Source of the DNA: Chrysomallon squamiferum
Lineage: Eukaryota > Animalia > Mollusca
Reading direction: 5' to 3'
NCBI GenBank assembly: GCA_012295275.1
Contig: CM022679.1
Location: forward strand, 31,496,001-31,560,000
Length of the DNA stretch: 64,000 bases
Shown here: positions 5,436 through 63,960 of the stretch, in pieces
Layout of the letters: each line of letters begins with the position of its first letter
Position numbering within the stretch: position 1 is the first letter of the stretch
The notes under the pieces: generated by a model
The model's database searches: none
The model's input: the letters and a program-made list of their open reading frames with translations, nothing else
What the model was told of the DNA's origin: nothing
Program-made: the position numbers and the translations under genes

Positions 5436-20908
<15,473 letters not shown>

Positions 20909-36844: not shown

Positions 36845-36890
<46 letters not shown>

Positions 36891-37112
36891 GTGTGTGTTT
36901 GTGTGTGTCTTTTTAAAGATATATTTGACTGGAGGCTGTATGTAGTAAGTTAAAACTGAACAGAGACAATTCCAGCTACTGAAATGATATATTCTTTACT
37001 TTTGTACAATTTAATACTATTTGTAATATTTGGTTTTATATATGCCTCTTATAGACCATGATGATATTTTTGTGACCTTTGAATTATGAGCTTGTTGCAG
37101 AAAATGGGTATC

Positions 37113-37118
37113 AATAAA
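37113..37118 (+). terminator. Candidate polyadenylation signal of the PH-domain gene
   Basis: AATAAA followed by a GU/U-rich downstream element. Confidence 0.4.
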
Positions 37119-38252
37119 ATATTGCTTTGTTTCTTTGAGTTTGTTTTTCTTATTCAAAAGAAAAAAAGGATATTAATCTTTTTTTTCTTTTCTTAATAAA
37201 AATATTGTTTTAATGCATTTAAGAAATCTATTGGTTATTATTCATTCTCTGAAAGTCTAAAAATAAAAAAGAATAAAATATATCAAAACCCATAGTCCAC
37301 TGGCTAAGACATAGGGACTCAGTGGTCCAATCTATACAGTGTAAACCAGGACTTCACAAACCTGTTAGTCAAATTTTCACATTTGGCATAAAACATTGGA
37401 ACCACTTTGTTGATACCCCAACCTCCCCTATCAAGCTGGGAAGACTTATTTTTTACATATTAATAAGATCTTTTTTGTTTAATTTTCATTATCTTTTTTT
37501 TTTTCCATGTTATTCTTGTTAAAAAATTTAAATCTTGGCATATTTGTAAATTATAATAATGCCAATCTTCAGTTTTCTAATATGCACATGTTAGTTATAA
37601 ATACATTGTTTGTATAGCTTACACATACATATTCTTAATTTTTACACTACATGTGCACTTATCTTACAATGTCTGGATGTTTTCTTTTGTCTTTATTATT
37701 GTTATTTCAGCTTATTGCATACAAGTTCTATCTGTGTTTCTATTTTTTTCGTTTGAAAAATGAAAAAAAAAAAAATTAACATATAAAACCAAAGCATTAA
37801 CTTACTTTGATCCACTACTTAAAAAAACAACCAAAAAACAATCAAAAAATTAATAATCATAAATCAAAAATGTATAAATATAAAACATTTTAATTTATTA
37901 TTATTATTATTATTTTCCTAAAGTAGAAATGAAATACAATAGTAAGAAAGTTATCAACAAGTTAGAGTCAAACCATTAATTTACTTTGATTGGTTATTTA
38001 CAAAAAATTAAACTTAATCATAACACATGAATATACAGATATTCACAACATTTTTTGTTTTTCTGTTTGTTTGTTTATTTTAAAAAAGAGCAAAAATAAA
38101 ATAAAATAATAAAACATATATGTATACATTAGGGACAAAACATTAATTTACTTTGATTAAAAAATTAATTTAATCATAAAACAGATATATATATATTTTT
38201 TAATAACTATAAAAGTTTAATTTACTTTGATAAGTTATTTTACAAAAAATTA

Positions 38253-39962
38253 AATTTCCCTTAGACTTAATGTATTAATCTGTAGTGTCATTACTAATGT
38301 TTTTAAAAAAAGAAAATATGTATTTATTTATTTTTAGTATGAGCAGTAAAGGGGAGTAACTCCTGTTTTAAGGAATGTCGAAAATATATTTCTAAAGAGA
38401 ATATTAAATTAACGGTCGAAGGGAAATAATTCATGACGCATAAAGAAAACAAGAGTTATTTCCCGTAGACTGTTAAATATTAATCTGTAGTGTCATTTCC
38501 AATGGTATAATTATTATTTTTTTTTTATAATGGATGTATCTATTTATTTTCAGTGTGAGCAGTAAATTTACGATCTAAGGGGAGTAACTCCTGTTTTAAG
38601 GAAAGTCGAAAATGTAATTGTTTAGAGAATATTAAATTAACGGTCAAGGGGAAATAATTCTTGATGCCTAATCAAAACAAGAGTTACTTCCCCTAGACTG
38701 TTAATTTGCCATTTCCATTTTTTTTTTTTTTTTTTTTTTTAAATTATAGATTGATTTATTTTCAGTATGAGCAGGAAATTAATGATTTGAGGGGAGTGAC
38801 TCCTGTTTTAAGGACAGTCGAAAATATATTTCTAAAGACTAAAGAGAATATAAAATTAACGGTCTAAGGGAAATAATTCTTGAAGGATAAAAACGAATTA
38901 TTTTCCGTAGAGTGTTAATGTATTAATGTGTAGTGTCATTTGCAAGGCTTTTTTTTGAAAAAAAGAAATTTGATATATTTATTTTCAGTATCAGCAGTAA
39001 ATTTACGATCTAAGGGGAGTAACTCCTGTTTTAAGGAAAGTTGAAAATATATTTGTAAAGAGAATGTTAAATTAACGGTCAAGGGGAAATAATTCCTGAT
39101 GCCTAAACAAAACAAGAGTTATTTCCCTTAGACTGTTAGTATATTAATCTATAGTGTCATTTCAATTTTTATTTATTATTATTATTTGTTTTTATATATA
39201 TATTTTTTTAAATTATGGATTTATTTATTTCCAGTATTAGCAGTAAATTTACGGTCTAAGGGAGTAACTCCTGTTTTAAGTAAGGTCAAAAATTAATTTC
39301 TAAAGACAATATTAAATTAACGGTCAATGGGAAATAATTCTTGATGGCTAAACAAAACAAGAGTTATTTCCCTTAGACTGTTAGTATGTTAATCTATAGT
39401 GTCATTTCCATTTTTATTTATTATTATTATTTGTTTTTATATATATATATTTTTTTAAATTATGGATTTATTTATTTCCGGTATTAGCAGTAAATTTGCG
39501 GTCTAAGGGAGTAACTCCTGTTTTAAGTAAGGTCAAAAATTAATTTCTAAAGACAATATTAAATTAACGGTCAATGGGAAATAATTCTTGATGGCTAAAC
39601 AAAACAAGAGTTATTTCCCTTAGACTGTTAGTATGTTAATCTATAGTGTCATTTCCATTTTTATTTATTATTATTATTTGTTTTTATATATATATATTTT
39701 TTTAAATTATGGATTTATTTATTTCCAGTATTAGCAGTAAATTTACGGTCTAAGGGAGTAACTCCTGTTTTAAGTAAGGTCAAAAATTAATTTCTAAAGA
39801 CAATATTAAATTAACGGTCAATGGGAAATAATTCTTGATGGCTAAAAAAAACAAGAGTTATTTCCCTTGGACTGTAAATGTACTAATCTATAGTGTCATT
39901 TCCATTTTTTTTTAATTATTATTATTTTTTTTATACAAAATTATGCACTTATTTATTTTCAG
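38253..39962. repeat. Tandem satellite, about 7 units of 212-247 bp, each with an internal inverted repeat
   Basis: The GCAGTAAA anchor (one variant) recurs at 38343, 38559, 38771, 38994, 39240, 39487 and 39734. Units carry AAGGGGAGTAACTC, AAGGGAAATAATTCTTG and CAAGAGTTATTTCCCTT. Confidence 0.95.
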
Positions 39963-40899
39963 TATTTTAGTATATAATAGCTTATAAAAACTACATTATT
40001 GGTCTGATAAATAAATTATAAAACATAACAAATTTGATTTTAGACATGCAATCGCTGAAGTAATTATCAATGACGAGTTAGACTTATATACATAATAGCT
40101 TTTACACCTTCATTTCAAGTGACTGAAAGAGAATGAGATGAGAATACAATCTGTTTTAAAAATCAGCCAAAATGATTTTCAATCATTACATTGCTGTCTT
40201 GGTTATAAACAAATACTAATAATCATAATTAACAAACAAATAAATAAATAAATAAATAAATAACAAAAAACATATGAAAATTTATTGAGATATAAATAAG
40301 TATACACTTGAATTATATATGCAAAAGAGAAAATTCTAATTAAAGAAAAAAAAAATGAATGAAATAAAAATATAAAAAAGTAAAAATAAAATAAAGATAA
40401 CGAACTTTTACTCCAATACAAATTACTTTTAACTTAATATAAATCAAAAATATAATGCAATGTACCCTAGCTAGATAAATAAATATTAAACATGTGCTAA
40501 CAAACATGCTATTTTAACAACATAAATTTATAATCTAACTTTTTGAACTATGATATTTTCTCAGTTCATAAATTTTACTGAGTTTAATGTACCAAAGGTG
40601 AACAGTCCCCCAGTAGCTCATTTTCAAATATGAGTTTCCTGTATTAGCCACACTGAGGTGGGGGTATCATCACTCACCAGGTGACTCCTTGTTGCTGCAT
40701 TTAAGGTACATTAAATAGTAATAATTTTTAAATGGTGAGGAATGAATGATCCTAACAAATAATTATAAAATAAACCTAAGTATTTTCATTACACCATGCA
40801 AGACAAAATGGATACCAATATTTCTTTTAAATTAAGACTAAACAAAATTTTAGTTTTATATTTATTTAGTTTCTAATTATTAAACAATAAGGAATATCA

Positions 40900-41905
40900 T
40901 TTTATTTTATTTTATTATTATTAATAATGTATTACTAGTGCTTCTGCTATCATTACTATTGCTACAAATACTACTACTATTATTATTACATATTGATTTA
41001 GTTCTAGTTTTACATCTTCTTCTTCTTCTTCTTCTTAGTACTACTACTATTACTACTATAACATATTTATTTACTTATTTACTTTTTATTTATATATTTA
41101 TTTATTTATGTATTTATTTATTTATAATGCTATATATTCTATTTCTAGTGTTTCTTTTTTTTCTTCTTCTTATTATTATTACTACAACAATTACTACTTT
41201 TGTTATTATTTTTATATTTATTTATTTATACAACATTTTCTTCTTCTAATTCTTCTTCTTCTTCTTATTGTTTATTATTTCTTTCTTTATTTGTTTATTT
41301 ATTTCAAACCGTATGTCTTCTTCTTATTATTATTTATTTATTATGCTACATGTTGTTCCTGTTGTTCTTTTTCTTCTTTTAAATTAATTATTTTATTTAT
41401 TTATTACATTTATTGATAACGTTGCATGTTCTTCTTCCTCTTTTTCTTCATCTTCTGATTATTATCATTGTTATTATTTATTTATTTATAATGTTCTTCT
41501 GTTTCTAGTTTTTGTTCTTCCTCTTTTACTACTATTTCCACTACCACTACTTCCACTACTACTACCACTACCACTACAACTACAACTCTTCTTCATCTTC
41601 TGATTATTATTATCATTATTATATATTTACAATACTAGATGTTCTTCTATTTCAAGTTCTTCTTTTTCTTACTACTACTACTACAAATTTATTTATTTAT
41701 TTTATAATGTTAGGTATTCTTCTTATTATTGTTACTGCAACTGCTACTGCTATTACTACTAATTCTACTACTACTACTCCCTACTACTACTATTATTTAT
41801 TTATTTATTTACTTACTTATAATGTTATATGTTCTTCTAATTCTTCTTATTATTTATTTATTTATTTATCGATAATGCTACATATTCTTCTGACTTGAGT
41901 TTTTT

Positions 41906-41944
<39 letters not shown>

Positions 41945-43000
41945 TTATGCTACATTTTTTTCATTATTAATGTACTAAGTTTCAATATTAAATTAAATAT
42001 GTAAGTATTGGAATCATTTTAAAGTATCAAAATCTAATTATTTATCTGCAAAATTTGAAAAATTTAAAAAGTATATGTGATGAACATAATTTTAAAAAAT
42101 GTTTGAATTTGTGGTGAAGAGTAACAATTAATAGTAATAATAAGAAAAATAATTTTTGGGATGACTAAAAATAAATAAATAAATAAATAAACAAATAAAT
42201 AAATAAATCAATAAATTAATAAATAAATAATATAAATAAATAAATAAATAAACAAACAAAAAAATAAAAAAAAATAAAAAAATAAATAAAATAAAAAAAT
42301 AATAAAGTAAGATATATGCTTGAATGATATTAAGAGACAGTAATGCTATTATTTATTGTTCCAAAGTTATAAATATTTGAAATTCAATTCAGAATTTATG
42401 GACACCCATATATATTAAGAATCTGAAAAGGTTCAAAATTTTATGAATCAAAGAAATAAATAGTCTGTAATAAAATTTAATTAGTTTTTTAAATCGTAAA
42501 AATTAAATATGCACCACAATCATCTCCATCATTTGACTACTATATTTATAATTAAAATACAGTTGAAAGCATTAATAAAAAGTAAAGTTACACACTACAT
42601 TTTAATCTTGTTGTTTAATATCAGTCATCATATATGTACACTACTGCTACTACTAGTACTACTACAACTACTTCTACTGCTACTACTATTACTATTGCTA
42701 CTATTTTATTTTAATATCAGTTTTTACATCTCTTTTTCTAGTTCTTCTTCATCATCCTTCTTTTCTTATTTATTTATTTATTTATCTGCTTATTTATATA
42801 TAATGATTCTTCTTCTTTTTCTTCTTATTCTTGACCGTATTATTATCATTATTAAGAATTATTTATTTATTTAAATTTAATGTTGCATGGTGTTCTTAAT
42901 CTGGTTCCTATTTATTTATTTATAATGTATATATTATCCTTAAAGTTCTGCTTCTCCTTATTTATTTTATTCATATTTTATGCTACCTGTTCTTATTATT
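40900..43000. repeat. Low-complexity (TTA/CTA/CTT/TTTA)n tract
   Basis: Mixed tri- and tetranucleotide microsatellites; source of the spurious Leu/Tyr/Ile-rich ORFs. Confidence 0.9.
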
Positions 43001-43309
43001 ATCACTTACTATGCTAGATGTTTGTAATTGTAAATATATTAAATTTAGATACAAAATTAGAAATATATGGCACCATTTTGTTTTCTATATTTATTTCTAA
43101 AACTGGAAGATCTGATGTCACAAGAAAACAATTTTTGTTTCAAATGTTCTTACATTACTAAATATAGAAAGTAATTTTGCTCTGAACTTCTCTCGATTTC
43201 CGTAAACAAATAATATTTGTATATTACAGTAGAAAAATAGCAATAATAAATATATAAATAAATAAATACCAAGTTTGATTAATAATATTCTAAATCAGTA
43301 AATGTCAAA

Positions 43310-43620
43310 ATTGATCATTTCCGGTTTTGAAGCTGAATGTCGTTTGTCCACATTAATCATGAAGTAAACCCGTCCTAATATTTGAAAAACAAAACAAAAT
43401 TAAATTATTTTTAGCGTACTTACTACATATCGCAAAGTACTAACGCGGTGAGTTAATATTTAATTTTAATTTTGTCACACAGAAATTGCAGCTACTTACA
43501 TAGTTTGATGCGGAGTCACTAAGGATGTGTATTGTTGACGTCACTAGCATCGCTAGGTTGTCGGAAGTTGTCGAAGTAAAGCGAGTTGACAGAAACTTTC
43601 GGGAGTTTATCCCTTTCTAT
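43310..43620. promoter_or_regulatory. CpG-enriched promoter-like island
   Basis: TTCCGG near 43319, perfect CRE TGACGTCA near 43536, CGGAAGT at 43562, many CpGs in an otherwise very AT-rich context. Confidence 0.5.
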
Positions 43621-43638
43621 CTTTTAATACCAGTAAAC

Positions 43639-43669
<31 letters not shown>

Positions 43670-44084
43670 TTTTTTTTTTTTTTTTTTTAAATATTTCGTT
43701 ACGTAGTTAAAATTAATATTAAATATGACTTGTTTTGGTCAATGTAACATTTAAATTTTTTTTTTTATTAGTAACTAGACTGTTAACATGAGCAACTTTT
43801 GTTTCAACGGAAAACTGATAATTTATTACTGAACAAAAATAAATATAAATAAATAAATAAATAAATAATAAAGATACATTTAAAAGAAAAGAAAAAAAGA
43901 ATAGAAATAGGAAAAATATATTTTATAAGTGAATATATATTAAGCACATACTTACAAACAGGATTAAATTCGAAATACGAGGCTCCACAGTATACAAGGC
44001 TCTCTGTAGCATAGACACACACACAGAGATTCATACATACACCTGCAGAAACATAGACACCTATACATATGAACAAACGTATCA

Positions 44085-44266
44085 GTTACACACACGACTG
44101 TTATTCATCAGTAATTCAAACGGTAAACACGAATTTAGTAAAGTGGACATTTTCATAAAGAGGGCACTCAGATACAAACACTGCAAAAAACTGCAATATG
44201 TCGTGGATATGGAAGGATTATCATGAAAATTATTAACACTGAAATAAAAATATCACTTTAATAAAC

Positions 44267-44314
<48 letters not shown>

Positions 44315-45500
44315 TTTTCAAAACGACTTTCCTGCTTTATATCAATTATTATTAGTAGTATCAAAGGTTTAATCAAAGTAGGATATATTAATATACTTTC
44401 TATATACTTTTCTGGTCAGTGTTTATGAACTAGATATAGTGTAAATGTCAGTAATTTATATGTTACAGTTTGTTTAACAATATTTAAACTGTTGTAATAA
44501 TTTACATGTCAACGTTTCAGATTTTTCTTAACGTCACTGTAGTCTTGTTGAAAGTACAATAATTAAAAAACAAAACAAAACAAAAACTATATCATAATAA
44601 TTTTAAGAAAACAATACAACAGAATGATTAAATGTTATATGAAATCTGGATCATATTAAAACTGTTATTTTGATTATATATCAACATTTGTATGTAGCTT
44701 TACTTTCAATTATGTGAATAGGGGTTCACCATTTCCAGTTTATATATGTTTTAGTTGTTTACTTTTTGTACACCAGTGTCTGTCATCAAAATTATAACTA
44801 AATTAATCTTTGACTATAATAATATCTAGAGACTGAATAAATATTCATATTTCACATACTATTATTAAAATGATAAAAAAAACGAACACCAAAAACCCCA
44901 TCTAAAAAAAAACCCCACGTACAAAACCAACAAAAAACAAACAACAAAACAAAGAAAAAGAAAAAAGAAAAACAACCGAATATTCATAGTCAATACATTT
45001 ATAGTATTATTACATTTTAATATCTCATAAACATTCTTATATTACATTTCACATTCATTATCTAGATACACAGCTGACTGAAATTCCAAAAAATTAGTTG
45101 CAGTCTATTTATGAAGTAATAATTTATTTTAACAATTATTTCCTAATTACTTTGAAAAATCAGAATAGGTAGATTTTATATTAACTATACTAGAACTTCA
45201 GGAGAAAAGGGTAAGCTGAAAAGAAAAAAAAAAAACAACCATGAACTACCTAAAATTTAACAGTTCAGAAAATCTTTTGCGTACCTATAAATATAAAATA
45301 AAATAAACAAAATGAAAAGTAAAATGAATAAAATAAAATAAAATAAAATATCATAAAATAAATAAATAACAATTAAGTCAGATAAAACTTCAGGAATATG
45401 AAGGAAATACAATAATTATGATATTTTGCATATGTTTAAAGTATCACAGTGTGGTAGATTTTTGTTAACAGTAATGAAGAACGGTAAAAATGTATAGATG

Positions 45501-45535
<35 letters not shown>

Positions 45536-46178
45536 TTGTATAAATATATATATGTGTACATATATAAACATCTATTTATGTATGTATCTAGCAATAACTA
45601 TAAGAATGATAATAATAAGGAAAATTAAAATTAATACAGTTGCAAAGAAATCATGTATTTTTTCTACAGAACTGTAGCTCATAAAAACTATTATTTACCC
45701 TAACACCGAACTGAATATTTTTTTCTCCCTAATTCATCTGTTGTAATCAGTAAAGTATAATTTTAAAAATTTCCTTCCTCCTTTATGTCAGTTATTACAA
45801 AAATTTCAAAGGGTTTAATCAAATCAGAATATAGTCATTTTCTATACAAGTTTCGTCTGATTAAGTTCAACATATGGCTTAAATGTCAATAGTTTATACG
45901 TTCAAGCTATTTCACTACTATTATAACAGTCAAAGTTATACAAAGTAGAATGTATACTTCAGGGACAGTTTATCTAGGAAAAAGACAGAGTCAGTAGATT
46001 ATTTGTTTCTGTTTATCTACGAATATTTTAAAAATTAATTTGCATGTTAACGTTTCAGATTTTGCTTGACTTTTCAGAGGTCATATTAAAACTCTTTTAC
46101 AATAAGAATTTATATAAAAAAAAAGAAAACCAAAGAAAAAAACTTACAGCAATTGCATTGCATGTTACTAAAACAATT

Positions 46179-46219
<41 letters not shown>

Positions 46220-46680
46220 GACTTCAGAATATGTTAATCAAATTCATTACATGTATTTTGATCTTTTTCTATTACAGGGTTTGTCTGTAAGTCCAATCAT
46301 TAGACCTAGTAACTAAATTAATATTTAATTTACTCATCTAATAAATATTCATATTGATATATGTATATATATTTGTATTATACTTTCAAATAACCCATAT
46401 ATTTACATTGTAATTAAAACTATAACAATAGCAAGTTATATCTAAGGAATATTAATATTTCCATTATTAAATAACTTTTTGCTATTATTAAGTTTATAAC
46501 AACAGTAATAGTGTAATCTCATAAATGTTCACCACTAAAATTTCATATTAGTTTCATATAAGTCCACAGATGGTTCATTGTATATACACATAGTTAAGAT
46601 CTGTTTATAAAATAATAATTACTTAGTTAATTACTTAGAAATCTAAATTGGAAAGTTTTATTAACAAAAGTAGGTCTTCA
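44085..46680 (+). pseudogene. Two remnant paralogous 3' ends of the secreted-peptide gene family
   Basis: AACGTTTCAG|ATTTTTCTTAA (44521-44531) and AACGTTTCAG|ATTTTGCTTGA (46059-46069) match the terminal exon at 49901. Flanks 44090-44620 resemble 48730-48800 plus 49735-49968. No upstream exons found. Confidence 0.5.
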
Positions 46681-46919
46681 GATTTATTACAGATTTCTGT
46701 GAGATATACGTATCAGGTGATCTAATTCTATATTCATGCACTGTGTATAAAAAGAGGAGATTTTTTTGTGAAAAGCAAAGACGAATCCAAGAGAAGAGAA
46801 AGTTTTAAAGAAGAATCAGAGAAAATATTTGTCTTCATTCACTAGTTTCACATTCCTTTACATTTAAGTCTATATTTATATATATATTTATTTAACAAAG
46901 AAAATTATATTATGTGTTC

Positions 46920-46955
<36 letters not shown>

Positions 46956-47188
46956 CTCACTCTACATTCATACATAAAGTTGTCTCGGTTACCGATAGAT
47001 ATCGTCGTTAGCCTTCTAAGTGCACAAAATAAACACATCCATGCATACATACACACCCTATTCTCTTGTACTCACTGTAGGTATAATAGTGTTATACAAC
47101 TATAGTTTTTCACATATTTGTTTACTTATATATATAAACATACTCACATACAAAAAAAACACACCTAGATACACAGATACATACATAC

Positions 47189-47367
47189 GGTTTTCTTGCG
47201 GGCCGAGTGTTTTCGGAGTTTGGGGAAATGGGTGTCATACGCTGGCATCTCTTCATCAACGTCTGACGGGGTTTGTGAGGTCGCGACTGGACTTTGTCCT
47301 GTTACGTTAGAGCGTTCCCGAGTGTTACCTAAGGGTAGAGTCTAATCAGACGTATATAAGACTGAGA
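47189..47367. mobile_element. GC-rich insertion in an (ACAT)n microsatellite, probable retroposon fragment
   Basis: About 180-bp CpG-rich block flanked on both sides by (ACAT)n. 47228-47241 is the reverse complement of 55487-55500. Confidence 0.55.
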
Positions 47368-47513
47368 ACATACATACATACATACATACATACATAATAC
47401 ATACATACACACACATATATATATATACTCAATGATACAGATATACACACACATACACACTCTTTCTGAGTAATAGTTTACATAATAAATTTACAAAAAA
47501 ATATCTGTTTCAA

Positions 47514-48171
47514 ATGAAAGTATTTCAGCTCTCAGTTGTAATGTTTCTTCTGTTGGTGCTTAATTCATCTCCGATATTAGCTACTGTTACGTATTCAGAA
47601 TGTGTGGAAAAATGCAGGTAAGTCTACAATCGGCTTAACAGGTTCAGTAATTAGAAGTAATTTGTATCAAAAGCGAATCTTCGATCACGTTAAAAAAATG
47701 TGAAAATATTGTAACACCATTTCTCTTGCCTATTACATATATTATATATTCAGTTTATCACTTCTACACACTTTAATAGTAGTATGAAAGCTAGTAAAAC
47801 AGATAATATTGAAGATTCTGTAAATATAGATGTTTTATAAGGTATATAATATAAAAGAAAAATCTCTATCACGTTCGTATTTTATTTTTTATTTTATTAG
47901 TGGTTTCTTGCCAGATCCTTCGTAAGTATCATTTTATTATTATTCTATTATTCTATTAGTCTTTAAACTGCGTGTAAAACCCAACACACTACTACTATTA
48001 TACTAGTAAAACCCAACACACTACTACTATTATACTAGTAATACTAATACCACTACTACAACCTTCAGTATTATTAATATTACTACACTGCCAATACAGT
48101 ATATTATACTACCACAGCATTACTACCATACTTCTATTATACTAACAAATATTGCTGCTATTGCTATTGCT

Positions 48172-48212
<41 letters not shown>

Positions 48213-49564
48213 GCTAACATTATTATTATCATTAGTAGTAGTAGTCCCATCACTATTAAATATAATTCTTTCAGATTAACTGTACTCTATAGTATCACTA
48301 CATTACTTCCACACTACTACCATTTCTACCATAGCTACTACTTTTACACTAGTACTATAATATCCTGTATTAGTGCTATTGCTATTACTGTTATAATGCT
48401 GTTACTATTAATATTATCACTTCTAATGGTGGTTCTTTCAGATTAACTGTAAGGCAAAGTGATATATGTATACATTATTAAAATACTTTATACTGATTGT
48501 TGATGTTCTGTATATCATCACTGGCCACATTTTTCAGGAAATGCCCAAAATGCTGTGCTGATGTTGAAGAGATTGGAAGTAAGATGAATTTTATTTTCTT
48601 AAAGAATTTTACACAGGCACAGGCACAGACAGACACGTACATACGCTGAGGCTAATGTACTCTCACATACACACACACACGTATATATGTTTTTTACAGA
48701 CATAGACATGGACATACAGAAATGAACAAACACGACTGTTATTCATTGTAAATGATTTTAGTAAAGTGAACAGTTTACACGAAGTGGTCATTCAGACACA
48801 TACATACGTACATATATATATATATATATATGAATCTGCAGATCCTGTACATACGTATGTGATGTTGCATATATTTTAGAGAATATAATAATAAAAATAT
48901 CTCCTCGTTCAAGCTTTTGCTGGTATTCTGAAAGTTTCGATTATGTATGTATCATTTGCATGAAATTTCACCAATTAAGAATCATAAAATCACCAATTCA
49001 AAAGAACAGCAGTAACATTAACAGTAATTATAAACATGATAATAACAATAACAGTATAATAATAATAATAAGATCCCAGCTATAACAACAAAAACAATAA
49101 CAATAATTATAATTTTATTTTAAAATAAGCCCAGTTATATCATTTTAATAAGAATCTCCATTTTTTTTCAAACATCTCTGCCTTCGAAACCAAATTAGAC
49201 CAATAGCTGATCACATTGTTTAGCTATAGTCATAACATCCCAAATATTTAGAATAAAGTATATGGTAGGACAAATATTACTATTATCATTAAATTATTAT
49301 ACCACTACAGCGATTTGAAAAGATGTGTGTGTGTGTGTGTGTGATAAATGCATTATAGAGTAACTGGGCTTTCTCATAGTAAATATTTTCAATTGTTAAA
49401 GAACGTTATAATGTCGCGAATATTTATTCTTATTTAATGAAGATTTATTAGAAAGGTTACTTAATTTAGTAAAAAACAAAAGTAATAAATAAAATGTGTA
49501 TATGTGTGTGTGTGCGTGCGTGTGTTTCATTTAATAACAATAACAACAACAACAACAACAATAA

Positions 49565-49595
<31 letters not shown>

Positions 49596-49920
49596 AAGAA
49601 GAAGAAGAAGATGATGAAGAAGAAGACAAAGACGAAGATACAGAAGAAAAGAAGTATAAACATTTTTTAATTCAGTACAATCGTTAACATATTTTGTTTC
49701 CTGCAAAATATGCAATATTAGTGAATCATATTATAAAAATTATTAACACTGAAAGAAATACATCACTTTAATAAACCTCATTTTAAATACTTTTCTGGTC
49801 AGTGTTTATGAAGAGAAATAGTGAGTAAATATGAGTAATTTATATCTTACAGTTTAACAATATTATAACAATTGTAATCATTTATATGTCAACGTTTCAG
49901 ATTTTTCTTTACGTCACTGA
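47514..49920 (+). CDS. Small secreted Cys-rich peptide precursor (61 aa predicted)
   Basis: Exons 47514-47617, 47901-47921 (21 nt), 48538-48578, 49901-49920, all GT-AG. Translation MKVFQLSVVMFLLLVLNSSPILA-TVTYSECVEKCSGFLPDPSKCPKCCADVEEIGNFSLRH*. The hydrophobic signal peptide is clear; the last-exon assignment is inferred from phase. Confidence 0.75.
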
Positions 49921-49969
49921 AGTCTTACTGACAATATTTATGATAATTTTAGCAAAACTACATCACAAT

Positions 49970-50289
49970 AAGCTTGCATATAAGCTGAAAAAATGGTGGA
50001 CATAAGCTCAAAGATGTTTCAGCATATAAACTACCGAATGAGCTGCATTCTTCAAGTTAGTCGCATCTTCAATGGAACATTTAAAGCATTTGACAAACAC
50101 ATTAATCTTGCAAACTAAAAAGAACGTAAGTCTGGTGAACGAAAAGCGGAGATAATTCTGGGTTTAGTTTTGTTATGGGGAGGAAGGTATTTCACGTGTT
50201 CCTCTTCGTGGTGTCGGTCCCGGAATAGGCCGGGTTTGCTGATAGAGAGATGTGTACTGCTGCAGCACGAGGAGGTGGTTCAGGTCTCC
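49970..50289 (+). mobile_element. Probable 5'-truncated retroelement 3' end with an (ACAT)n tail
   Basis: Interrupts the homology with 44540-44620. The GC-rich end has stems CCTCTTCGTG/CACGAGGAGG and CCCGG/CCGGG, followed by (CATA)n. Confidence 0.45.
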
Positions 50290-51585
50290 ATACATACATA
50301 CATATGACATAGATAAGACATACATATATGCTTACACCTATACAAACATATATACACACAGACACACATACATATATACACATGTACATTCAAATGTATA
50401 TATGTGTTTATATATATATACAGACAGATGTACATACATAGATACATATACATACATACAAACATATATACATACACTTTGTCAAGAAATGCACACTCAT
50501 ACACACACATCTATATACATATCTATACATGAATACATACATGCTTACCCTAATACAAACATATATATACACAGACACACATACATATACAGACATGTGC
50601 ATACATATGTGTATATCTATGCACACACATGTACTACATACATATATACATATACATACATACCTATATACACTTTTATGTTCTTTTTTTCTAATAAGCT
50701 ATAGGTAGTAAGATAGATAACTGTTCATGCATTTAAAATTCAATTATTTTACGTAATCTTCTTAGTAGCTGTTAAAATAGAGGCAGACAGACAGAGTGTA
50801 TGACAGATGTACAGATTAAAATATGTCAGTTTTCTTTTTAAGCTGTAACAATTTTAATATGTTAGACTGATTTATACTTTTCTGTCGTAGTACAGAATAA
50901 TATAATATTCAAATCTTTGATACAAAATATTTTATTACATTCGTACATGATTTTAAAAAGCTCGTGTAATCGATATCATAGATATTCTTCCAAGAAGGCT
51001 GTTGAATAACACAACTGTTTTTGATATTTTCACATGATATATATACATTTTATCATTAAAGTATCTCGACATTAAAGAAATTTAAAGGACAGAAAGACCG
51101 TGTGACAGATATAGAGATTAAAATATGTCAGATAACTTTCTAAGCTGTCATAATTTTAACATTTACTGCCAGATTTGTAATTTTTTGTCGTTGTAAAGAT
51201 TAATATAATATTCAAATGTCTGATACAAAATATGTTATTACATTAGTACATGATTATTTTAAAAGGCTCGTGCATTCGATATAGTACACTTTCTTCCTGC
51301 TAGTTTGTTGAATAACACTACTGTTTTCGGTAAGATATTTTCACATTTTATATATATTTTTTAATGATCCCGACACTTCTAATAAATTTCATGAAACAGT
51401 ATTCACAATCATTTAATAAGACAATGTGTTGGATTTGATAAATAATCATCCTATAGTAGATACTTCATATATTATAATAGTCATTATATTAATAAGCGTA
51501 AAAAGAAAACAAATGTATATTTTAATCACTAAAAAATATATTTATTTCTCTAAGAATCTGCATGTTTCAGTTGACCTGGTTTGCA

Positions 51586-54003
51586 ATGTCTGTACTGAAA
51601 CTGAAAATGTTTCTCGTCTTACTAATTTTGGGATCAGTGGTGGCCGTGTCAGCTGTTGAATGGGAACCTTACAAACCACTGTAAGATTTATTTTAGCTGT
51701 CTTCCTATGTGAATCCAAATGTAAATTATTTTATTTTGTAAGATTTATTTCTGTTCTTCTTACTCAATAAATATCAGACAAGGTTAGAAATTTCAAGACG
51801 AAGGATTCCAGATTCAGACTATTTAAATGTGTCTTTGTATATCCTATGCTCGCTGTTATTTACAAGTATATGTTATAGAGAAGGAACTAATTCCATTCAT
51901 ATTTTGTGTAAAAGGCTTTATTATATTATTATATATATTTCTTTTTTCCACATGTTTCAGTCCACCGTGAGTATAATTTATCATTACATGACATTCACAC
52001 AATATTTCGGTCCTGTATAAAGAAACATACTGTATCAAGTAAACTAATAGCATACAAACTAAAATTAGGAAAAACAATCTGTGAAATAGTGTTTCCTTCT
52101 AATCCAATAATAAAAAAGAATTAGAATTATTAAGAGTTGAGAATCAGTTTATGTTTCTCTTTCTTTTTCTGTCTTTCTTTGTTTTGTTTTCTTCCACAAC
52201 CGTAACAACTTAGACCCAAGTGGAAATGGAAATGGAAAAAAATTAACGTGCTAATCAGAGCAAGCTGTTGTGAAGCACGTATTAGACCCAAGTTGTTATT
52301 TTACTAAATTATACTCATATCAGTCTTCACTTTTCAAAAACAGATTGATGTTTTATAAGTGAGTATCAATTTATCTCCACACAGAAGTGTGTGTGTGAGA
52401 GAGAGTGGCAATCAGCAGCAAAAACAACAAAATAATGATGATGATAATACTAAATTGTACTAATATCAGTGTTCACTTTTACAGATACAAAAGGAGTATT
52501 GTTAGGTGAGTACAGCCAAACCACCTACACCACAACTGCAACCGCCAACACAAAAAACAACATAATCAACAACAACAACAATAAGAATAATAATAATAAT
52601 AATAATTGATGATTCCGATGAATATTATATGTGTTGATGAATAGTATGTGGACAGCGATGAATGGTAATAGTAAGAAATGTGATAATTATTTCATTATTA
52701 TGTCTGCTGAAAAATTGATTTTTATTTTTATTTATGTGTTCCCTTCAGAGAATGGTATGTGTCAATTATCAGTAGGGAACTTAACTGTATTTACAACAGT
52801 ACCAAACAAATTCTTACATCAAAATTGAAGTAACAAATACACATCTGACCTGTTGTAATTTTATGCACTTTAATATAAATATTTTTAAATGAATTTTGAG
52901 AAGACTAACCATGAGATGGATCCAAATTTACTTTTAAGTTCCGATACTTATTATTTGATTGATAATTGTTGTTTCTCTTCAAAATATTAAACAAACAAAC
53001 AGCCTGGCAAGTCTCATTCTCTTAAATTGTAAGACAATTTAATTCAGCAGAAATATTATATATTGGGTCTTAGTTTTGTAAAACCAGAAACCATTAAAAA
53101 CAAGTCTCTTTGATATATTCGTAAGTTAATAGAGAGCACCCCACCTGGAAAAAGAACTGAATGGGGATTTCATGCAGTATGAACATAAGGGCATTAAAAC
53201 AGACGACAGTGATAAAAAATAAATTGTTAAAAAGGACCTCATTATATATGACAATGCTGATAATGCTGAATTCATTTTCTAACAAATGGACACTCAATCA
53301 GTTTATGCTTTTTAAACATTCACACTTCTTTTGCTGTAAATGTATAATGTTTTCAATCCCTGTCTAAGTGATGTCCATTATCCTTACTATTGTACTAATT
53401 CAGCACTTTTTTCTTTACTTTTATTTTACTATTTCTATCAGGCTTACATAAAATAATAATAGTAAAATAAAACGAAAAACTTAGTTTCCATGATTATTTA
53501 TCTTTATAAAACATGTACAGAGCTGGCTTGTAAGTCTCATTCTCTGAAACTGTAAGACAAATTACATCAGCAGAACTATTATACTGGGTTTTAGTTTTCG
53601 TAATACGCATAGAAACTATTAAATATAACTGTCACTGAATTGCACCGGTTCGGAATAAAATTATATTTTTTAATGTTGACAGGAGGCAGTTCCACCATTT
53701 AGAAATACAAGAATTCAGTTTCAGAAGACCGTACAAATGTCCAAGCTTATGATTTAAAAATCTCAAAAAATAAGTGAAACATTTCACATTACTGTCTAGC
53801 ACTTTGTAAATTCATACCACAAAGGTGAAGATATAATCACGTTTGTGAACAAACCCACGACAAAATCATACTCACATTAAATTTCCTAATTTATCCTTCA
53901 GACAGTATATATATATTTTTTTCCTTTAACAAAAGACAATAATGTATATTACAGTTTATCTAATGCGGACTATAACAAAATACATTATAAGAAAAAAAAA
54001 ATG

Positions 54004-54035
<32 letters not shown>

Positions 54036-54145
54036 AATAATAATAATTTAAAAAAATGATATTTAAATTTCTAGAAGATATACTGAATTTAAATTCAAAT
54101 CGTTTTTCTCCAAATCTTAAGAATATCATGTGTTCAGTTAAATAA

Positions 54146-54204
<59 letters not shown>

Positions 54205-54833
54205 CAACAACAATAATAATAATGATAATACTCTTACACAGCAGTTCAGATAAACTTAGTATTTTAAAGACGATGTCAAAATGAAGAGAAAAGATCGGAA
54301 CAGTTCGTTATCAATAGGTGTATAGAGGTCATCTCAAGTAAAATAAAACAAACATGTCTCCGAAATAAGAAAAAATGTAATTTGTATTTTCAGGAGAGGC
54401 GCACTACCTGTTATCTCTGATTTGCTTCACATCAGAAGTTGTAAGTGAAGTTATTTTTGTCTAAACTAATACAAGAAAGAAAATGTTTATTTTTGTGGAT
54501 ACTTATGTACGTAACTAAGCATATATCACTCAGTGAATGTATGTATGTATGTATGTATGTATGATTGTATGCATGCATATATGTATGTAGATGTATGCAT
54601 AAACGTGTGTATCTATGTATGTAGGTATGTCATCCATGTGTGTATGTGCATCTACGTATGGATAGATAGATAGGGACTGAAGAATGAATGGATATTGATA
54701 AAAATAATGTCTCATTTAAATTTCTAAATTCTTTAATTATTGCCGGCAGAGAGCTGATATTATGTATTTATTTACTGTTTTTCTCGTTTCAGTGTCAGGA
54801 AAAGAGGGAGAAAGCAAGATGAGTTCACGATAA
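51586..54833 (+). CDS. Micro-exon secreted peptide precursor, copy 1 (71-76 aa)
   Basis: Exons 51586-51680, 51961-51966 (6 nt), [52344-52358, 15 nt], 52485-52505 (21 nt), 52749-52754 (6 nt), 54394-54440, 54793-54833; non-coding exon donor at 51330. Translation MSVLKLKMFLVLLILGSVVAVSA-VEWEPYKPLPP[LMFYK]YKRSIVREWRGALPVISDLLHIRSLSGKEGESKMSSR*. Confidence 0.8.
52210..52293 (-). mobile_element. 60-bp retroposon 3' fragment with a 12-bp target-site duplication
   Basis: TTAGACCCAAGT at 52210-52221 and 52282-52293 flanks an insert that ends in (TTTCCA)n on the minus strand. The insert is absent at the paralogous site near 58815. Confidence 0.8.
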
Positions 54834-55013: not shown

Positions 55014-58000
55014 CATTTTCTGTAAGCATTATCAGTATTTTATTTTCCTAAATGTAAAATAATATATATTTAAAAGACAAAATTTTCACTGAATAACATT
55101 GACTCATCTTATTTATAGTGGACTTAAATGTTCTTCTGTTGTTTTTTCGAAACTGAATGTCCTCCAAATCAAGAAAAGTGATAACAATTAATTTTATACT
55201 TTCTTTTTCTTTCCCGAATCAAACTGGTCTGCACTTTGTAATTACAAACACAATGTCTATACATTGGAATGCAATGAAGCATCATATTTGTTAAACAGAT
55301 TGCTAGTGGCGCATTAATAGTGTCTAAAACTAAAACATATCTATATACAATATAAAAATAGTATAGCAGTTAGACTCAATATATCGGTAAATGATATTTC
55401 TCACTTTTTAAAATATAATTTGTAAAATGTTTAACGAGATTATTCTTATTTCCGAGAAAGTAACAATGCCGTTGACGAGATTTTAACGTATGACACCCAT
55501 ATATGCATGTGCATGTGCATGTATGTACGTATGTATGTCTGTATGTCTGTATGTATTTGTGAGATTAACTGCGTAAGGAGCCTATAGAAATAACTGTCTA
55601 ACAAAAAAATGTTTTGGATTAGTTGGATCATATTTATAATGACACGAATTACATACAACATACCTTGTTCCTTCTTGTTAATTACAATATTCGAGTAAAT
55701 GTCACTTTTGTAAATCAGTTTTTACATAGCACTGACTCCTTAATGAACAACATGCATGTATATAATCTATGCACGTTTATTTCTTTCTACATGTGAGTCT
55801 TTAATTGAGTGTATTCACCTGTCCCTTTAATCAATTATATAGCTAACTGTATATCTATGCATCTATGCATCTGTCTATCTGTCTATCTCTCTATATGTCT
55901 GTCTATCCATCTATCTATCTATCTATCTGTCTATCTGCATTTCTATCTAAATATATAATATATGCATAAATGGGTTGAATATGTCTCATAATTAATCTTG
56001 TAACGATTCATAAAACCTTTTTTATTTTAAATTTCTGAATAATAATCATCAAAAATAACAACTCACTAAAACTGATGTTCAATGACGTAAAAATACTGGT
56101 TTCAGTAACACATATAAAGTGATTAGTAAATATGACTCATGTTGAAAGATGTCGGTGGACGAAAACATTCAAATATGGTGCGCGTCAGTTTAACGACAGT
56201 ACAGGAGGCAGGGTAATGACCACCTACTCTCTAAAAACTAACTGAGTGAGAGTCAGACATGGAGATTACAATAAACCAAATATTCTATGATAAAAAAAAT
56301 AAATGTTTATTCTGAATATTCATTTGGTTTTTATGCTCTAGACTGAGAAAATATACGATTTGTTCTTTTTTGTGTGTTTTTTTTAAATTTATTTTTGTAA
56401 TATATACCATTACCACTATTAAAACATTAGATAAGACTAAAAACGCCTCTAATATTTAAAACATGAATATTAATACTGTCACAATTTTAATAACAGTAAA
56501 AATATCTTCTTTATTATGGCACCATAAAAATATGAAATTACCAAACATGACTAATTATTAAATAAGTGAATAAACTTTAATGACTTATGTCCTCAAAAAT
56601 AAAATAAAATAAAATTAACAAGTTCTCTCCATGTTGCAGGTCAGTTGAGGGTCACAACAAATCACAGTCATCATCAGGGCTCATAATGGTCATAAACCAT
56701 ATCAGCATTTTCCCTACACCTGTCAGATTTATAGTTCTGTACATTTCTATTTCTGACATTTACTGAATAATCCCCTTCCCTTGACATGCTGAATTTTCTT
56801 TCTTTATATCATTTCTACCTGTTTTTATTATTATTATTATTATTATTATTAATTTAGAGATCAATGTCAAAAAGTGCACACACATATCTATATACATATC
56901 TATACATACATACATATGACATAGATATGAGAAACATATATGATTACACCTATACAAACATATATACACACAGACACACATGCATATATACACATGTACA
57001 TTCAAATATATATATGTGTTTATATATATATACAGACAGATGTACATACATAGATACATATACATACATACAAACATATATACATACACTTTGTCAAGAA
57101 ATGCACACTCATACACACACATCTATATACATATCTATACATAAATACATACATGCTTACACCAATACAAACATATATATACACAGACACACATACATAT
57201 ACAAACATGTGCATACATATATGTATATCTATGCACACACATGTACATACATAGATACATATACATACATACATACATATATACACTTTTATGTTCTTTT
57301 TTTCTAATAAGCTATAGGTAGTAAGATAGATAACTGTTCATGCATTTACAGTTCAATTATTTTACGTAATCTTCTTAGTAGCTGTTAAAATAGAGGCAGA
57401 CAGACAGAGTGTATGACAGATGTACAGATTAAAATATGTCAGTTTTCTTTTTAAGCTGTAACAATTTTAATATTTTTGACTGATTTATACTTTTCTGTCG
57501 TAGTACAGAATAATATAATATTCAAATCTTTGATACAAAATATTTTACTACATTCGTACATGATTTTAGAAAGCTCGTGTTATCGATATCATAGATATTC
57601 TTCCAGGAAGGTTGTTGAATAACACAACTGTTTTTGATATTTTCACATGATATATATACATTTTATCATTAAAGTATCCCGACATTAAAGAAATTTAAAG
57701 GACAGAAAGACCGTGTGACAGATATAGAGATTAAAATATGTCAGATAACTTTCTAAGCTGTCAGAATTTTAACATTTACTGCCAGATTTGTAATTTTTTG
57801 TCGTTGTAAAGACTAATATAATATTCAAATGTCTGATACAAAATATGTTATTACATTAGTACATGATTATTTTAAAAGGCTCGTGCATTCGATATAGTAC
57901 ACTTTCTTCCTGCTAGTTTGTTCAATAACACTACTGTTTTCGGTAAGATGTTTTCACATTTTATATATATTTTTAATGATCCCGACACTGCTAATAAATT

Positions 58001-58196: not shown

Positions 58197-60539
58197 ATGA
58201 CTGTACTGAAACTGAAAATGTTTCTCGTCTTGCTAATTTTGGGATCAGTGGTGGCCGTGTCAGCTGTGGAATGGGAACCTTACAAACCACCGTAAGATTC
58301 ATTTTAGCTGTCTTCTTATGTGAATCCAAACATAAATTACTTTATTTTGTAAGATTTATTTCTGTTCTTCTTACTTAATAAATATCAGACGAGGTTGGAA
58401 AATTGAAGACGAAGGATTCCAGATTCAGACTATTTAAATGTATCTTTGTATATCCTATACTCGCTGTTATTTACAAGTAAATGTTATAGAGAAAGAACTA
58501 ATTCCATTCATATTTTGTGTAAAACGCTTTATTATATTATTATATGTATTTCTTTTTTGCACATTTTTCAGAACACCGTCAGTGTAATATATCATTACAT
58601 GACATTCACACAATATTTCTGTCCTGTATAAAGAAACATACTGTATCAAGTAAACTAATAGCATACAAATTAAAATTAGGAAAAACAATCTGTGAAATAG
58701 TGTTTCCTTCTAATCCAATAATAAAAAAGAATTAGAATTATTAAGAGTTGAGAATCAGTTTATGTTTCTCCTTCTTTTTCTGTCTTTCTTTGTTTTCTTC
58801 CACAACTACAGCAACTTCGACCCACGTTGTTATTTTACTAAATAGTACTCATATCAGTGTTCACTTTTCAGAAACAGAAGTAGGGCTTATCTGTGTGTAT
58901 CAATTTATCTCCACACAGAAGTGTGTGTGTGAGAGAGAGTGGCAAACAGCAGCAAAAACAACAAAGATAATGATGATGATAATACTAAATTGTACTAATA
59001 TCAGTGTTCACTTTTACAGATTGAAAAAGAGTATTCGTAGGTGAGTACAGCCAAACCACCTACACCACAACTGCAACCGCCAACACAAAAAACAACATAA
59101 TCAACAACAAGAACAACACTAATAATAATAATAATAAAAATAATTGATGATTCCGATGAATATTATATGTGTTGATGAATAGTATGTGGACAGCGATGAA
59201 TGGTAATAGTAAGAAATGTGATAATTATTTCATTATTATGTCTGCTGAAAAATTGATTTTTATTTTTATTTATGTGTTCCCTTGAGAGAATGGTATGTGT
59301 CAATTATCAGTAGGGATCTTAACTGTATTTACAACAGTACCAAACAAATTCTTACATCAAAATTGAAGTAACAAATACACATCTGACCTGTTGTAATTTT
59401 ATGCACTTTAATATAAATATTTTTAAATGAATTTTGAGAAGACTAACCATGAGATGGATCCAAATTTATTTTTAAGTTCCGATACTTATTATTTGATTGA
59501 TAATTGTTGTTTCTCTTCAAAATATTAAACAAACAAACAGACTGGCAAGTCTCATTCTCTTAAATTGTAAGACAATTCAATTCAGAAGAAATATTATATA
59601 TTGGGTCTTAGTTTTGGAAAACGTATCAGAAACCATTAAAAACAAGTCTCTTTGATATATTCGTAAGTTAATAGAGAGCACCCCACCTGGAAAAAGAACT
59701 GAATGGGGATTTCATGCAGTATGAACATAATGGCATTAAAACAGACGACAGTGATAAAAAATAAATTGTTAAAAAGGACCTCATATGACAATGCTGATAA
59801 TGCTGAATTCATTTTCTAACAAATGGACACTCAATCAGTTTATGCTTTTTAAACATTCACACGTCTTTTGCTGTAAATGTATAATGTTTTCAATCCCTGT
59901 CTAAGTGAAGTCCATTATCCTTACTATTGTACTAATTCAGCACTTTTTTCCTTACTTTTATTTTACTATTTCTATCAGGCTTTACATAAAATAATAATAG
60001 TAAAATAAAACGAAAAACGTAGTTTCCATGATTATTTATATTTATAAAACAGGTACAGAGCTGGCTTGTAAGTCTCATTCTCTGAAACTGTAAGACAAAT
60101 TACATCAGCAGAAATATTATACTGGGTTTTAGTTTTCGCAATACGCATAGAAACTATTAAATATAACTGTCACTGAATTGCACCGGTTCGGAATAAAAAC
60201 ATATTTTTTAATGTTGACAGGAGGCAATTTCACCATTTAGAAATACAAGAATTCAGTTTCAGAAGACCGTACAAATGTCCAAGCTTATGATTTAAAAATC
60301 TCAAAAAATAAGTGAAACATTTCACATTACTGTCTAGCACTTTGTAAATTCATACCACAAAGGTGAAGATATAATCACGTTTGTGAACAAACCCACGACA
60401 AAATCATACTCACATTAAATTTCCTAATTTATCCTTCAGACAGTATATATATTTTTTTTACTTTAACAAAAGACAATAATGTATATTACAGTTTAACTAA
60501 TGCGGACTATAAGAAAATACATTATAAGAAAAAAAAATG

Positions 60540-60585
<46 letters not shown>

Positions 60586-61457
60586 TAACAAAAATAATAA
60601 TAATTTAAAAAAATGATATTTAAATTTCTAGAAGATATACTGAATTTAAATTCAAAGCGTTTTTCTCCAAATCTTAAGAATATCATGTGTACAGTTAAAT
60701 AATAATAATAATAATAATAATAAAAATAATAATAATAGTAATAATAATAATAATAATAATAACAACAATAACAACAACAATAATAATAATAATAATAATA
60801 AAAATAATAATAATAGTAATAATAATAATAATAATAACAACAACAATAACAACAACAATAATAATAATGATAATACTCTTACACAGCAGTTCAGATAAAC
60901 TTTGTATTTTAAAGACGATGTCAAAATGAAGAGAAAAGATCGGAACAGTTCGTTATCAATAGGTGTATAGAGGTGATCTGAAGTAAAATAAAACAAAAAT
61001 GTCTCCGAAATAAGAAAAAATGTAATTTGTATTTTCAGGAGAGGCGACCGACCTGTTATCTCTGATTTGCTTCACATCAGAAGTTGTAAGTGTAGTTATT
61101 TTTGTCTAAACTAATACAAGAAAGAAAATGTATATTTTTGTGGATACTTATGTACGTAACTAAGCATATATCACTCAGTGAATGTATGTATGTATGTATG
61201 TATGTATGTATGTATGTATGATTGTATGTATGTATGTAGATGTATGCATAAACGTGTGTATCTATGTATGTAGGTATGTCATACATGTGTGTATGTGCAT
61301 CTGAAGAATGAATGGATATTGATAAAAATAATGTCTGATTTAAATTTCTAATTTCTTTAATTATTGGCGGCAGAGAGCTGATATTATGTATTTATTTACT
61401 GTTTTTCTCGTTTCAGTGTCAGGAAAACAGCGAGAAAGCAAGATGAGCTCACGATAA
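58197..61457 (+). CDS. Micro-exon secreted peptide precursor, copy 2 (71-78 aa)
   Basis: Exons 58197-58291, 58572-58577, [58872-58892], 59020-59040, 59287-59292, 61039-61085, 61417-61457; non-coding exon donor at 57943. Translation MTVLKLKMFLVLLILGSVVAVSA-VEWEPYKPPTP[NRSRAYL]LKKSIRREWRGDRPVISDLLHIRSLSGKQRESKMSSR*. Some micro-exon splice sites are weaker (GTCAGT, GTGTGT, GAG acceptor). Confidence 0.75.
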
Positions 61458-63699: not shown

Positions 63700-63960
63700 G
63701 AAATTTAAAGGACCGAAAGACCGTGTGACAGATATAGAGATTAAAATATGTCAGTTATCTTTCTCAGCTGTCATAATTTGAACATTTACTGCCAGATTTG
63801 TAATTTTTTGTCGTTGTAAAGACTAATATAATATTCAAATGTCTGATACAAAATATGTTATTACATTAGTACATGATTATTTTAAAAGGCTCGTGCATTC
63901 GATATAGTACACTTTCTTCCTGCTAGTTTGTTGAATAACACTACTGTTTTTCGGTAAGAT
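63700..63960 (+). promoter_or_regulatory. Promoter and non-coding exon 1 of a third micro-exon gene copy (coding part beyond the window)
   Basis: Paralog of 51095-51335 with the TTTAAAAGG TATA-like box and an intact donor CG|GTAAGA at 63954. Confidence 0.6.

Follow-up and report, generated by a model that had tools for sequence, protein, structure and literature searches.

A candidate cysteine-rich secreted-peptide gene, likely part of a tandem cluster of short-exon genes, in Chrysomallon squamiferum

Background

The closest described systems to the gene considered here are the micro-exon genes (MEGs) of schistosomes and a set of small helical-hairpin peptides. MEGs have the bulk of their coding sequence in very small symmetric exons, as stated in the part of PMC4350168 drawn on here. 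According to that part, and to the portion of a preprint used alongside it (bioRxiv 10.1101/2023.06.21.545858), MEGs hold 10-20 such exons per gene, have been described as specific to the Schistosomatidae, and combine a signal peptide, tiny symmetric exons and long introns with fast-changing products. MEGs also vary their proteins by skipping symmetric exons. The helical-hairpin peptides carry the pattern C-X3-C...C-X3-C and, in the passages of PMC7191063 cited here, consist of two antiparallel helices with disulfides 1-4 and 2-3, with the plant alpha-hairpinins, the scorpion kappa-hefutoxins and the cone-snail peptides flf14 and vil14 as examples; the alpha-hairpinin motif is given in the same passages as Xn-C-X3-C-Xn-C-X3-C-Xn, with four cysteines (Cys) and X not Cys. 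Here we describe a predicted gene for a small Cys-rich secreted peptide, with coding exons between positions 47514 and 49920 on the + strand of a 64,000-nucleotide (nt) stretch of the mollusc Chrysomallon squamiferum (GenBank assembly GCA_012295275.1, contig CM022679.1, positions 31,496,001 to 31,560,000 of the forward strand), and we refer to the whole of this stretch as the window.

The gene likely belongs to a local tandem cluster of short-exon secreted-peptide genes. Like MEGs, the cluster has N-terminal signal peptides, short symmetric exons between much longer introns, and clustered paralogues whose peptides change fast. Genes of such a short-exon kind are usually missed by automatic gene finders. 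The window itself is AT-rich, with a G+C fraction (GC) of 0.22-0.35 per 2 kilobases (kb). Exons for the gene had been proposed in a sequence-only reading of the window, which we followed up computationally.

Results

The gene model and its predicted precursor

The gene is modelled with four exons on the + strand. Exon 1 (47514-47617; 104 nt, ending in phase 2) is bounded by caa/ATG at its start and TGCAG/gtaagt at its end, with the donor CAG/GTAAGT, and contains the ATG and the codons for a predicted signal peptide of 23 residues and for mature residues 1-11 with the first CX3C motif (CVEKC). Exon 2 (47901-47921) is a symmetric micro-exon of 21 nt, from phase 2 to phase 2, set between ttattag and gtaagt (acceptor ttattttattag), and it encodes a Gly/Pro-rich stretch between both CX3C motifs. 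Exon 3 (48538-48578; 41 nt), which is asymmetric, running from phase 2 to phase 1 between tttttcag and gtaaga (acceptor cacatttttcag), supplies CPKCC and an acidic stretch; exons 2 and 3 both pass the strict scan described below. Exon 4 (49901-49972) lies behind the acceptor caacgtttcag, and its coding part of 20 nt (49901-49920) completes six codons and ends in TGA. The 3' region after this stop is short, with AATAAG at 49967. Every intron of the gene has GT..AG borders, and the intron phases are 2, 2 and 1. When the four exons were joined by their coordinates with a script, they gave an open frame of 186 nt for a precursor of 61 residues; all four exons and their splice borders agree with those proposed in the sequence-only reading, and the frame is intact.

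The first 23 residues of the precursor form a leader that has small residues at -1 and -3 and whose residues 3-16 average 2.79 in Kyte-Doolittle hydropathy. The mature part, of 38 residues, has an isoelectric point (pI) of 5.0, with 6 acidic and 4 basic residues, and its Cys at positions 7, 11, 21, 24 and 25 make up the five-Cys pattern C-x3-C-x9-C-x2-CC that had been read from the unjoined sequence and that the joined frame bears out. The joint of exons 3 and 4 creates an NFS sequon. We read the locus as a lineage-restricted gene whose predicted 61-residue precursor would yield a small acidic, disulfide-bonded secreted peptide, expressed as modelled, and judging from the sequence we hold this to be an even call. 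As a kind of find, an orphan Cys-rich secreted peptide in a tandem cluster is a familiar one, and a fairly ordinary lineage-specific gene is a plausible description of it.

The strict scan for micro-exons covered both strands and required a YAG acceptor, at least 14 pyrimidines among the 20 upstream bases, a donor of the form GT[AG]AG[TA], a length of at most 90 nt and an open frame, with 30 block-shuffled windows as its control. It returned 23 candidates on the + strand and 5 on the - strand, against a mean of 6.1 in the shuffles (standard deviation 2.8, maximum 13), and the excess on the + strand falls mostly in the gene array from ~46 to 64 kb. Exons 1 and 4 are 2.3 kb apart, and in this interval, where ~0.2 strict candidates would be expected, the scan found exons 2 and 3, together with a 7-nt candidate nested in exon 2, and exons 2 and 3 both preserve the frame. 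Because of this excess of strict candidates, and of two in-frame exons where ~0.2 were expected, we take the model to be a real feature and not a cherry-picked frame.

Observations that weigh against expression as modelled

Several observations weigh against the reading of an expressed gene for a disulfide-bonded peptide. Among the RNA data sets listed, none contains 46700-50000; three RNA runs under the same organism label gave, over 40000-50300, only short pieces of 38-87 nt near the gene, at low-complexity repeats, and a word-based search of 5.8 billion proteins returned no homologue candidate for the peptide. The allele in the window has no acceptor AG before the ATG. A TATA-like box, placed near 46745 in the sequence-only reading, was located at 46746, and no donor scoring at least 6 of 8 was found between this box and the ATG, which leaves the 5' exon suggested to run from the box without its splice site. 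The surroundings of the gene are decayed or carry insertions, with two early-stop orphan modules and a repeat plus microsatellite upstream and an Sm-like retro-pseudogene downstream. The number of Cys in the mature peptide is odd (5), and a search of introns 1-3 under relaxed criteria for a missed micro-exon bearing a Cys gave no convincing case. As for the fold, the cited passages of PMC7191063 hold that a Cys pattern alone can neither classify a peptide nor predict its fold; moreover, the peptide departs from the four-Cys motif of the alpha-hairpinins in that its fifth Cys falls inside the second X3.

Other results of the searches are neutral or narrower in scope. None of the predicted joints (47617/47901, 47921/48538 and 48578/49901) is among the 15 of 90 joints listed, which speaks neither for nor against expression. 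The sequence-only reading had proposed toxin, defensin and metallothionein families for comparison; a Pfam scan, of the exon-1 translation only, gave no family, and four short motifs of the peptide had no occurrence in a full-text literature search. A degenerate pattern of exon 3 was met at three metagenome loci (L001-L003), each of them without fitting splice borders or a frame around it, and these were set aside as chance matches. Simple repeats of the CTA/CTT/TTTA type at 40800-42900 and 48000-48450 contain spurious long 'open reading frames' rich in Tyr, Leu and Thr; they draw thousands of contig pieces and are the source of most of the apparent RNA depth. Further upstream, a contig of 1066 nt from the RNA library of run X3 is colinear with the genome at 42466-43539, with 0 mismatches and no splice, and may stem from an unspliced transcript, from a transcribed repeat or from carry-over of DNA.

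The 5' end and its segregating acceptor

Immediately ahead of the ATG the window reads TGTTTCAA, which the sequence-only reading took for a possibly mutated acceptor. The suggestion is strengthened by run X1, in which the A at 47513 (+) is also found as G (TGTTTCAG, A>G). With G, the sequence becomes TTTCAG/ATG, an intact acceptor abutting the start codon, and this base has a depth of 51.5 of 106 in one X1 contig. Since run X1 has both A and G at 47513, the 'mutated acceptor' is a segregating variant. Run X1 holds 70% of the sampled words of the stretch and may be the sample behind the window assembly. Between 47468 and 50000 (~2.6 kb), 14 differences from the window are listed for X1, and 0 of those listed fall in the 186 coding bases; with an expectation of ~1 for these bases, the absence is not significant and gives no evidence of constraint.

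The two alleles would differ in how a transcript could reach the coding frame. On the G allele, an upstream non-coding exon or leader would splice straight onto the ATG. On the A allele this acceptor is missing, and either transcription would have to start nearby, TATATAAG at 47353 being a candidate, or an internal AG would be spliced and translation would begin at the second Met. Two acceptor-like sites do lie within exon 1 (47521..47543, +), with TATTTCAG ending at 47528 and CTCTCAG ending at 47535, and after both of them comes a second in-frame ATG at 47541 with a purine at -3, a possible alternative start on the A allele.

The block at 47185..47460 (+) consists of a G+C-rich element (47185-47345), with TATATAAG at its end, followed by an (ACAT)n-type microsatellite, and it ends ~55 nt upstream of the ATG. 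The element has a GC of 0.51, and its observed/expected CpG ratio is 1.22 where that of the window is 0.45; the X1 depth reaches 2715 in the bin 47224-47567, against ~40-300 in most neighbouring bins. It has no second copy within the window and no match in Rfam or in the scan for transfer RNA (tRNA) genes. The block may be either an inserted repeat or the proximal promoter; the G+C-rich island itself probably represents a dispersed repeat whose tail is a microsatellite.

Copies of the 3' module and a possible decay of the gene

The distal part of intron 3 and exon 4 together form a 3' module (48702..49936, +) with paralogous copies upstream. Copy A (44063..44556, +) matches at 85% identity across 151 nt surrounding the last exon and has a TAA after three codons, while copy B (45756..46134, +) is ~66-71% identical and has a TGA after three codons. 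In the three-way alignment the best-conserved block is the acceptor caacgtttcag with the first 10 exon bases. Neither copy showed exons 1-3 upstream, and a search of 35300-47500 for signal exons belonging to the two orphan last exons met only low-complexity or weak matches. Given that neither upstream copy has exons 1-3 and that both frames end after three codons, the lineage has already lost members, and by their sequence the two copies look like remnants of lost paralogues, left by birth-and-death turnover.

On the other side of the gene, ~70 nt beyond its stop codon, begins an intronless Sm/LSm-like frame (49993-50290, +), with a match to Pfam LSM (E=4.4e-6) over its first 41 codons, a TAA after codon 41 and an (ACAT)n-type microsatellite behind it. 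It looks like a processed pseudogene of a small nuclear ribonucleoprotein Sm protein.

In such surroundings the gene may itself be a silent or decaying copy, an intact-looking leftover of the turnover in the cluster that is no longer, or never was, properly expressed on this haplotype. The acceptor AG of the other allele is AA in the window, two modules upstream are without exons 1-3 and have early stops, the G+C-rich repeat and its microsatellite occupy 55-330 nt upstream of the ATG, a retro-pseudogene sits ~70 nt past the stop, and a peptide with an odd Cys count and no homologue would be in keeping with decay. However, all four exons are open, their splice sites fit the consensus, the differences listed for the X1 contigs leave the coding bases untouched, the acceptor is kept on the G allele, and an unspliced 5' end could be driven from the TATATAAG at 47353. 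We regard decay as a real contender, though on the whole an unlikely one.

Alternative exons

It is also conceivable that the gene is real and that its exons differ from those modelled, either because splicing into 47528 or 47535 leads to a start at the second Met (47541) or because further symmetric micro-exons are included. The acceptor-like TATTTCAG and CTCTCAG ahead of the second ATG would fit the former, as would the neighbouring gene, whose coding exon begins behind catgtttcag; the leader left by such a start, however, would be short at 14 residues and would have no charged start. As to further exons, the sequence-only reading had suggested a check for a missed micro-exon with Cys, and the relaxed criteria gave 10 candidates in introns 2 and 3 and 0 in intron 1, those in intron 2 sitting in low-complexity repeats; the check produced none that convinced us. 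One of the two best candidates in intron 3, symmetric and of 18 nt (49803-49820, +), lies between ggtcag and gtgagt, is open in phase 1, has 13 pyrimidines among 20 upstream bases and would add six residues including Lys-Arg; its counterpart in copy A (~44410), however, holds a stop and has no donor, and the candidate was rejected. Another, of 45 nt (49676-49720), would bring two Cys and was rejected for its weak donor, GTGAAT. All in all, we consider a different exon make-up improbable.

That the frame is a chance product of splice-like motifs in AT-rich DNA, with no gene at all, might be argued from the many such motifs on the + strand (67 TTTCAG and 25 GTAAGT), from exons first picked by eye and from the want of RNA support and of a homologue, but strict candidates, which gather in the gene array, are ~4x commoner on the + strand than on the - strand or in shuffles, both internal exons fit the frame, the last exon is kept in three module copies and the phase plan is that of the neighbouring genes, and we find this explanation highly improbable.

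The neighbouring Cys-free genes

Downstream of the gene, on the same strand, lie copies of a gene without Cys. Copy 1 (51586..54833, +) was modelled with coding exons of 74(95)/6/15/21/6/47/41 nt, the first measuring 74 nt, or 95 nt from the first in-exon ATG, and the last lying behind ctcgtttcag. The phases of these seven exons are 2,2,2,2,2,1,0, and the product after its leader is basic, with a pI of 9.8. Copy 2 (58197..61457, +) has an open frame if the 15-nt exon, poorly kept there (10 of 29 positions differ), is left out, and several of its residues are unlike those of copy 1. The signal exons of the two copies are at 51586/51607 and 58197/58218. Each neighbouring signal exon is preceded, ~260 nt upstream, by an exon-like unit of 26/27 nt (51304-51329, 57917-57942 and 63927-63953, +), which is bordered by ctgctag and gtaaga and begins with TTTGTT, followed by AATAACACTACTG; the units are ~6.0-6.6 kb apart. 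As the unit recurs three times, the Cys-free gene is present in at least three tandem units, two full copies followed by the beginning of a third. Near 50990-51030 there is one more, degenerate, copy of the exon-like unit.

The gene and its Cys-free neighbours have a common plan, in which a phase-2 signal exon is followed by one or more symmetric micro-exons, an exon of 41-47 nt running from phase 2 to phase 1, and a short last exon behind CGTTTCAG. This octamer occurs 6 times on the + strand and 0 times on the - strand; of these occurrences, 5 are last-exon acceptors in the cluster and represent two independent lineages only. The layout that the sequence-only reading ascribed to the neighbours is thus seen again in the independent seven-exon model, with the same phase plan and no Cys. 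Its further claim, that one ancestral scaffold lies behind both, is not proven by the exons themselves. In local alignments of the gene with its neighbours the exons score no better than shuffled sequence (signal exon, p=0.32; 41- versus 47-nt exon, p=0.53; last exon, p=0.65; 21-nt exon, p=0.53), and the p values of 0.04 and 0.01 obtained only when 40-nt flanks are added are driven by the splice-site consensus. Common ancestry is therefore undemonstrated, the exons not being significantly alike (p 0.32-0.65), though position, strand, phases and the CG before TTTCAG make it plausible; on its own, this shared CG is a weak hint of kinship in the sequence.

Other features of the window

Elsewhere in the window there are exons from conserved animal genes. 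A CNOT3-type exon for the NOT2/3/5 C-terminal domain lies near 20390 (Pfam NOT2_3_5_C, E=1.2e-14), with exons within 18100-20700 on the + strand. At 124-873 on the - strand there is a CEP131/AZI1-like exon, which has an IQ motif; its closest match in the database is only 74% identical and the second 46%, and these values suggest a sparsely sampled lineage. One weaker match is named '5-azacytidine-induced protein 1' by JGI, and an Atlas search gave only look-alikes by IQ motif, with scores under 0.9. Rfam and tRNA scans gave no match.

Discussion

If the gene is expressed, it would add an unannotated, taxonomically restricted Cys-rich peptide to a tandem cluster of micro-exon type. One way to read its Cys is as CX3C-X9-CX3C, with a further Cys next to the last; the two CX3C motifs lie on separate exons, and kappa-hefutoxins have a spacer of 9 residues. 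By analogy, the peptide may work like the helical-hairpin peptides. The leader would route the product into the endoplasmic reticulum, with cleavage after residue 23; the two CX3C motifs would then sit on two antiparallel helices joined by the Gly/Pro loop from the 21-nt micro-exon, and two disulfides (1-4 and 2-3) would pin the helices as they do in helical-hairpin peptides. The fifth Cys would stay free or serve in dimerisation, and the NFS sequon at the joint of exons 3 and 4 could carry a glycan.

A layout with one exon per structural element, together with the shared phases, would make the cluster a small natural test of diversification by exon replacement, and function could be tested between alleles through the A/G variant that sits in the acceptor beside the ATG. 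That polymorphism and the setting among micro-exon genes lend the locus a modest added interest; as it stands, it is one more plausible orphan gene. A far bolder proposal can be put forth, in which the cluster would be a micro-exon-type family of secreted peptides outside the schistosomes, its tiny exons standing for structural elements (helix 1, loop, helix 2), where exon replacement on one phase-compatible scaffold could yield both hairpin and linear basic peptides, and a segregating acceptor at the start codon would switch the present member on or off. We think it quite unlikely that this whole picture is correct.

Comparison with helical-hairpin peptides and micro-exon genes

Set beside the helical-hairpin peptides, the peptide predicted here is likewise short and has twin CX3C motifs. 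It differs from them in having five Cys instead of four and in being acidic, and no homology is implied by the likeness. Because the pattern cannot classify a peptide, and because of the Cys inside the second X3, we offer the hairpin as a working analogy and not as family membership.

Set beside the MEGs, the cluster is alike also in the 6-, 15- and 21-nt exons of the Cys-free neighbours, and the precursor of the focal gene has the N-terminal signal peptide of such genes, as predicted from the hydropathy of its leader (2.79) and the small residues at -1 and -3. The share of coding bases in symmetric micro-exons is unlike that of MEGs, at only 21 of 186 in the focal gene and 48 of 210 in the neighbour. 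Where MEGs consist mostly of small symmetric exons, the focal gene has a single one of 21 nt, and its 41-nt exon is asymmetric. With only 21 of 186 bases in a symmetric micro-exon, the gene is micro-exon-like and not a MEG; the word-based protein search gave no sequence similarity either.

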